NCBI RefSeq assembly: GCF_003334315.1
Contig: NZ_QOWR01000036.1
Source of the DNA: Escherichia coli
GTDB taxonomy: Bacteria > Pseudomonadota > Gammaproteobacteria > Enterobacterales > Enterobacteriaceae
Reading direction: 5' to 3' (one strand)
DNA length: 46,318 nt
This document shows positions 1-453 of this stretch, one piece after another. Numbering within the stretch: position 1 is the first letter of the stretch; each line of letters begins with the position of its first letter. The notes below the pieces were generated by a model that worked only from the letters and a program-made list of their open reading frames with translations, ran no database searches and was not told where the DNA came from. The position numbers and the translations under genes were made by a program.

Positions 1-438
1 AGGCCGCAGTCGGTAACCTCGCGCATACAGCCGGGCAGTGACGTCATCGTCTGCGCGGAAATGGACGAACAGTGGGGCTATGTCGGGGCTAAATCGCGCC
101 AGCGCTGGCTGTTTTACGCGTATGACAGTCTCCGGAAGACGGTTGTTGCGCACGTATTCGGTGAACGCACTATGGCGACGCTGGGGCGTCTTATGAGCCT
201 GCTGTCACCCTTTGACGTGGTGATATGGATGACGGATGGCTGGCCGCTGTATGAATCCCGCCTGAAGGGAAAGCTGCACGTAATCAGCAAGCGATATACG
301 CAGCGAATTGAGCGGCATAACCTGAATCTGAGGCAGCACCTGGCACGGCTGGGACGGAAGTCGCTGTCGTTCTCAAAATCGGTGGAGCTGCATGACAAAG
401 TCATCGGGCATTATCTGAACATAAAACACTATCAATAA
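1..438 (+). CDS. insB: IS1 transposase InsB, C-terminal part (5' end outside window)
   Basis: Frame is open from base 1 ([31 protein letters not shown]...NIKHYQ*), stop at 436..438; matches IS1 InsB C-terminus. Confidence 0.85.
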
Positions 439-453
439 GTTGGAGTCATTACC
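1..453 (+). mobile_element. IS1 insertion sequence, partial (3' ~453 bp, inner end at 453)
   Basis: Sequence matches the IS1 3' portion; element ends ...cactatcaataagttggagtcattacc at 453; exact reverse complement of 45866..46318. Confidence 0.9.

Follow-up and report, generated by a model that had tools for sequence, protein, structure and literature searches.

Organization of the Window

The stretch of Escherichia coli DNA that was analyzed, referred to here as the window, is 46,318 bp in length and is the entire contig QOWR01000036.1 of the draft assembly GCA_003334315.1, in which the gene coordinates are identical. The ends of the window are therefore contig ends. The contig was identified by an exact protein look-up with the 315-aa product of 1532-2479. 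The interior carries the gene for a 315-aa hypothetical protein, hipA, hipB, a frameshifted autotransporter gene, lsrKRACDBFG, tam, yneE, and uxaB, followed by marCRAB, eamA, ydeE, dgcZ, dcp, ydfG, rspR, ydfZ, ydfI, ydfJ', and a prophage-edge remnant. The first-pass annotation had placed the mar and lsr loci between the two ends of the window, and this is correct by the annotation used here. The coordinates of the features discussed below are presented in Table 1.

Table 1. Features of the 46,318-bp window
Feature	Position	Strand	Remarks
IS1A-type IS1, right part (IS1 positions 316-768)	1..453	+	cut at contig end
insB', last 145 codons	1-438, stop codon 436-438	+	within left IS1 piece
Terminal 77 nt, common to IS1A-type and IS1B-type	1..77, mirrored at 46242-46318		interpreted as a k = 77 graph node
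IRR, left copy	431-453 (about)		
Native chromosome interior, 45,412 bp	454..45865		one BLAST alignment to CP53
GACAACCCG, 9 bp	454..462	+	beside left IRR; predicted inner copy of target-site duplication
119-aa hypothetical gene, 3' remnant	454..717	+	WP_096178407.1 in CP53; PEC411 counterpart WP_061349496.1
315-aa hypothetical protein	1532-2479	+	beside hipA
ECSE_1600-family autotransporter	4575-9994	-	frameshifted
STnc560 Hfq-binding sRNA (Rfam)	34643-34856	-	between ydeE and dgcZ
tfaQ-ydfJ' spacer	44195-45865		
ORF in the tfaQ-ydfJ' spacer	45241-45390	-	
CATACTCCC (reverse complement GGGAGTATG), 9 bp	45857..45865	+	beside right IRR; predicted inner copy of target-site duplication
IRR, right copy	45866-45888		
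Second IS1 copy, same 453 bp	45866..46318	-	IRR inward; cut at other contig end

IS1 Sequences at the Two Ends

A direct comparison of the terminal sequences demonstrated that positions 1..453 and 45866..46318 are exact reverse complements of one another. The exact match spans 454 nt, of which the last agrees by chance, since IS1 terminates at ...GGAGTCATTACC, which is base 453. Past the terminal IS1 match, the two ends disagree at 148 of the following 200 positions.

Using the complete 768-bp IS1 of strain AH01 for numbering, the terminal piece was found to comprise IS1 positions 316-768 and to be identical to the IS1A-type copy of that strain at 453 of 453 positions. The piece codes for the last 145 codons of InsB', which contain the DDE transposase domain of this family (Pfam PF03400, DDE_Tnp_IS1), and it ends in the canonical IRR terminus. 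The membership in IS1 is thus established by sequence identity and by the transposase domain together. The IRR faces the interior on both sides, and hence the two copies are inverted relative to each other. These results bear out the first-pass annotation, which had described the ends as exact reverse complements that stop at the same internal IS1 position with their inner ends facing the interior. The window does not contain IS1 positions 1-315, IRL, insA, the A6C site, or the outer target-site duplications, which would be situated past its two ends. The A6C frameshift motif, which is found in complete copies of both common IS1 variants (see below), starts a few bases outside of the contig end. 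A search of the interior (454..45865) for further IS1-like 20-mers found none.

Comparison of the Interior with Complete Genomes

The interior was aligned with the nearest complete genome, CP53 (NZ_CP033096.1, 2256162-2301576), in one block with 99.89% identity, 42 mismatches, and 6 gaps. This alignment ends exactly at positions 454 and 45865, which are the IS1 boundaries. In CP53 both IS1 sites are empty, and the DNA runs on into its normal neighbors. To the left are the remaining part of the gene for the 119-aa hypothetical protein, a gene for a hypothetical protein of 312 aa, and the fimbrial genes ydeTSRQ, and to the right is a Qin-like prophage, entered from its tfaQ end. The left half of the interior has a match in all 5426 of the complete genomes searched and the right half in 5425 of 5426. 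When at least 80% of a half was required to be in one place, the left half was found in 3863 genomes and the right half in 5330, with nearly all of these matches on the chromosome. Of the left flank, the first 600 bp (454-1053) are present in only 49 of the 5426 complete genomes. The DNA between the IS1 ends belongs to the native core chromosome, at its usual location and with its usual gene order, collinear with CP53, and there is no sign of mobilization.

These results bear directly on the proposal that the IS1-flanked segment, a unit of 46.9 kb, is a composite transposon, moved or movable, that carries mar, lsr, and hipBA. The segment is indeed bracketed by two IS1 ends, and composite transposons with two IS1 copies exist, with the copies direct in Tn9 and inverted in Tn1681. 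In CP53, however, the same DNA passes seamlessly into the neighboring genes at its native position and order, and among the 5426 complete genomes the two halves of the segment are almost always chromosomal. Both target sites are the normal neighbors of the segment, as insertions in place would leave them and as would not be expected of a transposed unit. In genomes that lack the two IS1 copies, the cargo is collinear and runs on without a break into the DNA that normally adjoins it. Past movement as a composite transposon is thus effectively excluded, and the probability of the proposal as a whole is negligible. The resemblance to Tn9 and Tn1681 extends to the bracketing of a segment by two IS1 copies, which are also inverted in Tn1681, whereas here the bracketed DNA is 45 kb of core chromosome in place rather than accessory cargo at varying locations.

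The Two Junctions and Their Target Sites

The inner flanks at the two IRR ends differ, with GACAACCCG... on one side and GGGAGTATG... on the other. Each junction uses the IRR end of IS1 and joins it to different unique DNA, and therefore at least two copies of IS1 are required. The two IRR junctions are real and separate. They are 45.4 kb apart, and neither site is occupied in CP53, in agreement with the earlier suggestion that these are separate insertions. A single IS1 that bounds a circular molecule was considered and rejected, since both junctions are at IRR and the ends form an inverted and not a direct repeat, which calls for two copies.

The left IS1 interrupts the gene for the 119-aa hypothetical protein beside hipA, after codon 32. 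There is no Pfam match on record for this protein or for the 315-aa protein that is also encoded beside hipA. The right IS1 is located 61 bp downstream of the tfaQ stop codon, as read from CP53, at the edge of the Qin-like prophage. Both insertions are in AT-rich DNA (37-39% G+C in the adjacent 100 bp). Matches to IS1 are present in 4963-5001 of the 5426 complete E. coli genomes, with a median of 10 places per genome. IS1 was found at neither exact site in any of the 5426.

The terminal 453 bp are repeat sequence, and the path through the assembly graph is picked by the assembler. One or both of the junctions might for this reason be assembly chimeras, with IS1 absent from these sites in the strain. 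Two observations make this highly improbable. Both junctions are located exactly at the IRR terminus of IS1, as they are in real insertions, and the same left junction is present in an independent Logan assembly contig, SRR1122540_5, that is present in four samples. By arithmetic, the length of this contig, 45,464, is equal to 25 + 45,412 + 27, as would fit the same right junction.

The outer sides of the two elements were sought in the available records. An exact look-up of the neighboring 312-aa protein (left) and a search via tfaQ (right) returned only long contigs with empty sites. The fusion peptide that is predicted from the 5' part of the 119-aa gene read into IRL is not on record, and neither is an ORF across the right junction. 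We infer that both copies of IS1 are full-length and that 9-bp duplications are present on their outer sides. For a simple insertion on the left, the outer junction would read ...ATCGGAACTGACAACCCG+GGTGATGCTGCC, in which ...ATCGGAACTGACAACCCG is the 5' part of the 119-aa gene. On the right, the outer junction would read GGCAGCATCACC+CATACTCCCTACCTATAGC on the + strand, with the reverse complement ...GCTATAGGTAGGGAGTATG+GGTGATGCTGCC. The IS1 of strain AH01 is flanked by a duplication of 9 bp, CTGCACCGG.

Position at Which the Contig Ends

The truncated 145-aa InsB' product is encoded by nucleotides 1-438 at the end of a second contig from this assembly, QOWR01000004.1, and at contig ends in nine other assemblies. 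These ten contig ends were aligned and found to start at IS1 position 316, with a different flank in each case; LRKG01000191 has one extra base. The same terminal repeat thus ends other contigs with unrelated flanking sequences. An exact protein look-up of the 145-aa product returned 177 index blocks, and IS1B-type copies that end at IS1 position 316 were found in 397 index blocks. A neighboring end point was used as a control by looking up the corresponding 144-aa product; the top matches are scaffolds with N-gaps inside IS1, and the control is hence confounded. IS1 position 316 was shown to be a recurrent contig end in the same assembly and in unrelated assemblies, although not necessarily the commonest one. 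The suggestion that the window is a contig that ends inside a collapsed repeat is upheld by this recurrence, and also by the fact that its ends are contig ends in a draft assembly.

The alignment of complete IS1 copies identified two common haplotypes, denoted IS1A-type and IS1B-type. These are identical from position 305 to position 392 and differ at positions 298, 301, and 304 on one side and at positions 393, 396, and 444 on the other. IS1 position 393 corresponds to base 78 of the window, so that the first variable site is preceded by exactly 77 nt of the contig. If k is 77, a variant-specific edge of a de Bruijn graph would begin with the shared 77-mer at IS1 positions 316-392, which is where the contig stops. 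With k = 55, the same reasoning predicts a start at IS1 position 338 (393 - 55), and this start was found in 6 of the 6 contigs examined, which are from other assemblies and were identified by a look-up of the 137-aa product.

The end points are thus located k nt from a variant site, with 2 of the 10 position-316 contigs outside of this simple model. These two, DABVZV010000018 and LRKG01000191 (with its one extra base), are not explained by a simple picture of two variants and k = 77. The contig DABVZV010000018.1 (locus L027) ends at IS1 position 316 and yet contains four substitutions within the first 77 nt by comparison with the other copies. The distance to the variable site suggests that the final k of the assembler was 77 and that the genome probably holds a second IS1 variant, with both IS1A-type and IS1B-type copies present. 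The trimming of vector-like IS1 sequence upon submission to NCBI was also considered as a source of the common end point, and is less likely in view of the exact start at position 338 for k = 55.

Origin of the Terminal Inverted Repeat

The best explanation for these observations, and one that we regard as very probably correct, is that the window is a whole short-read contig from a chromosome with two independent and ordinary insertions of IS1, and that both ends of the contig stop within IS1. According to this explanation, two independent IS1A-type insertions, inverted and with IRR inward, would bound the hipBA-lsr-mar-ydfJ' core in this lineage, and the right insertion would be situated in the AT-rich spacer that separates ydfJ' from the tfaQ end of the Qin-like prophage. 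From the unique flank on either side, the assembler would walk into IS1 until the graph became ambiguous at the 77-nt node of IS1 positions 316-392, halted there because IS1 is multi-copy. The two ends of the window would then be the same sequence of the assembly graph and therefore exactly identical and equally truncated, without carrying biological information. The matching truncation of the two ends is an artifact of the assembler and is not a biological structure.

Contig breaks of this kind at multi-copy insertion sequences are familiar from short-read de Bruijn assemblies, and the window resembles them in that the distance from the end point to a variant site equals k (77 here and 55 elsewhere). 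The sole special feature of the present case is that both ends of one contig enter the same repeat in inverted orientation, which creates a terminal inverted repeat. The element itself is of the same kind as the simple chromosomal IS1 insertions of E. coli (IS1A-type and IS1B-type copies), and the part contained within the window, positions 316-768, is identical to that of a complete IS1A-type copy.

It is not likely, in our judgment, that the source strain carries the 45.4-kb segment in the orientation opposite to the ancestral one, with the same two IS1 copies at its ends. Two routes to such an inversion can be formulated. RecA recombination could occur between two inverted IS1 copies, or a single intramolecular replicative transposition of IS1 (duplicative inversion) could invert the segment in one step and leave a second, inverted copy at its far end. 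The architecture is that of a substrate or a product of these reactions, since the copies are inverted, have IRR inward, and are of the same variant over positions 393-768. In the E. coli long-term evolution experiment, approximately 70% of the large rearrangements occurred via recombination between IS elements (PMC4173774). An inversion between IS copies leaves the junctions between the IS and the flanking DNA unchanged and is invisible in short-read data (PMC5009759). The four junctions left by a duplicative inversion by IS1 would, according to our own derivation, be no different. The contig fits either orientation equally; the junctions are the same either way, and the orientation of the segment therefore cannot be read from this contig. 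Neither junction is present in the 5,426 complete genomes, which hence offer no orientation to read. Positive evidence for an inversion is absent, two independent insertions suffice to account for the data, and the spacer on the right has been struck by IS1 independently in at least three other lineages. If the segment were inverted, the replication direction of about 40 genes beside the prophage edge would be reversed.

The first-pass annotation had also pointed out that this is the architecture of an IS1-bounded segment that can invert, delete, or mobilize the intervening DNA. This is only a generic possibility. There is no sign of mobilization, and when two inverted copies undergo homologous recombination, the DNA between them is inverted and not deleted (PMC5009759). 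The IS-bounded invertible segments that are described from the long-term evolution lines (PMC4173774, PMC5009759) have in common with the window a pair of inverted copies that are tens of kilobases apart, and differ from it in that nothing here indicates a past inversion.

The two independent insertions that we favor are ordinary events. All of the parts encountered here (IS1, contig breaks at insertion sequences, and IS-bounded segments) are of known kinds, and are already known for E. coli. What follows is in the first place a caution for the reading of draft genomes. When a draft contig shows a perfect terminal inverted repeat with equal internal truncation, this is the signature of stopping by a graph assembler in a multi-copy insertion sequence, and it is not to be read as a composite transposon. 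In addition, two lineage-specific insertions of IS1 are now recorded. The one on the left inactivates a small hypothetical gene beside hipA, and the one on the right adds to a local hot spot for IS1 at the edge of the Qin-like prophage. Together, the two copies could act as a substrate for inversion.

Variation in the Neighboring DNA

The spacer between tfaQ and ydfJ' contains IS1 at four or more sites in different lineages. Relative to the right insertion described above, IS1 is 105 bp further out in HCP6S3_I1 and 102 bp in AH01, and it occupies a separate position in CP138419.1. The loci that were compared with the window here are L002 and L003, around 6700-7475, and L065, at 4736-5433. A short ORF within the spacer resembles the C-terminus of a tail-fiber assembly protein, and the spacer is therefore probably a prophage remnant.

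On the other side of the window, the region that separates the fimbrial genes ydeQRST from the block of genes for the 312-aa, 119-aa, and 315-aa hypothetical proteins and HipA is highly variable between genomes (loci L012-L021). Its cargo is defense-like or mobile and consists, depending on the genome, of a TIR_2 protein (L015), an inovirus-like block with Zot and Rep_trans (L017), HamA (L018), or a ThiF/JAB block together with an integrase (L019 and L021). The variable region beside hipBA looks like a hot spot for integration or for defense islands.

Copies of IS1 were also noted in two other loci. In L020 (GCA_040812535.1, 13831-20939), there are several copies of IS1, and hipA was not called. 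One IS1 is located approximately 4 kb past hipB and is followed by a gene for a 483-aa protein of the mannitol dehydrogenase family, probably uxaB. This arrangement suggests that an IS1-associated deletion has removed the lsr operon from that genome. In L001 (strain PEC411, 1-12600), tandem units of IS1 and a bglH' fragment are found, with three copies of the 315-aa hypothetical gene upstream of hipA, which looks like an IS1-driven local amplification in a related genome.

Two further features of the interior were recorded. The STnc560 sRNA is full-length, with a score of 281 bits, and adjoins mgtS. The gene for the ECSE_1600-family autotransporter is split into ORFs of 1553 aa and 249 aa in different frames. 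It is frameshifted in CP53 as well, and the intact protein of 1806 aa is encoded in L012 and L013.
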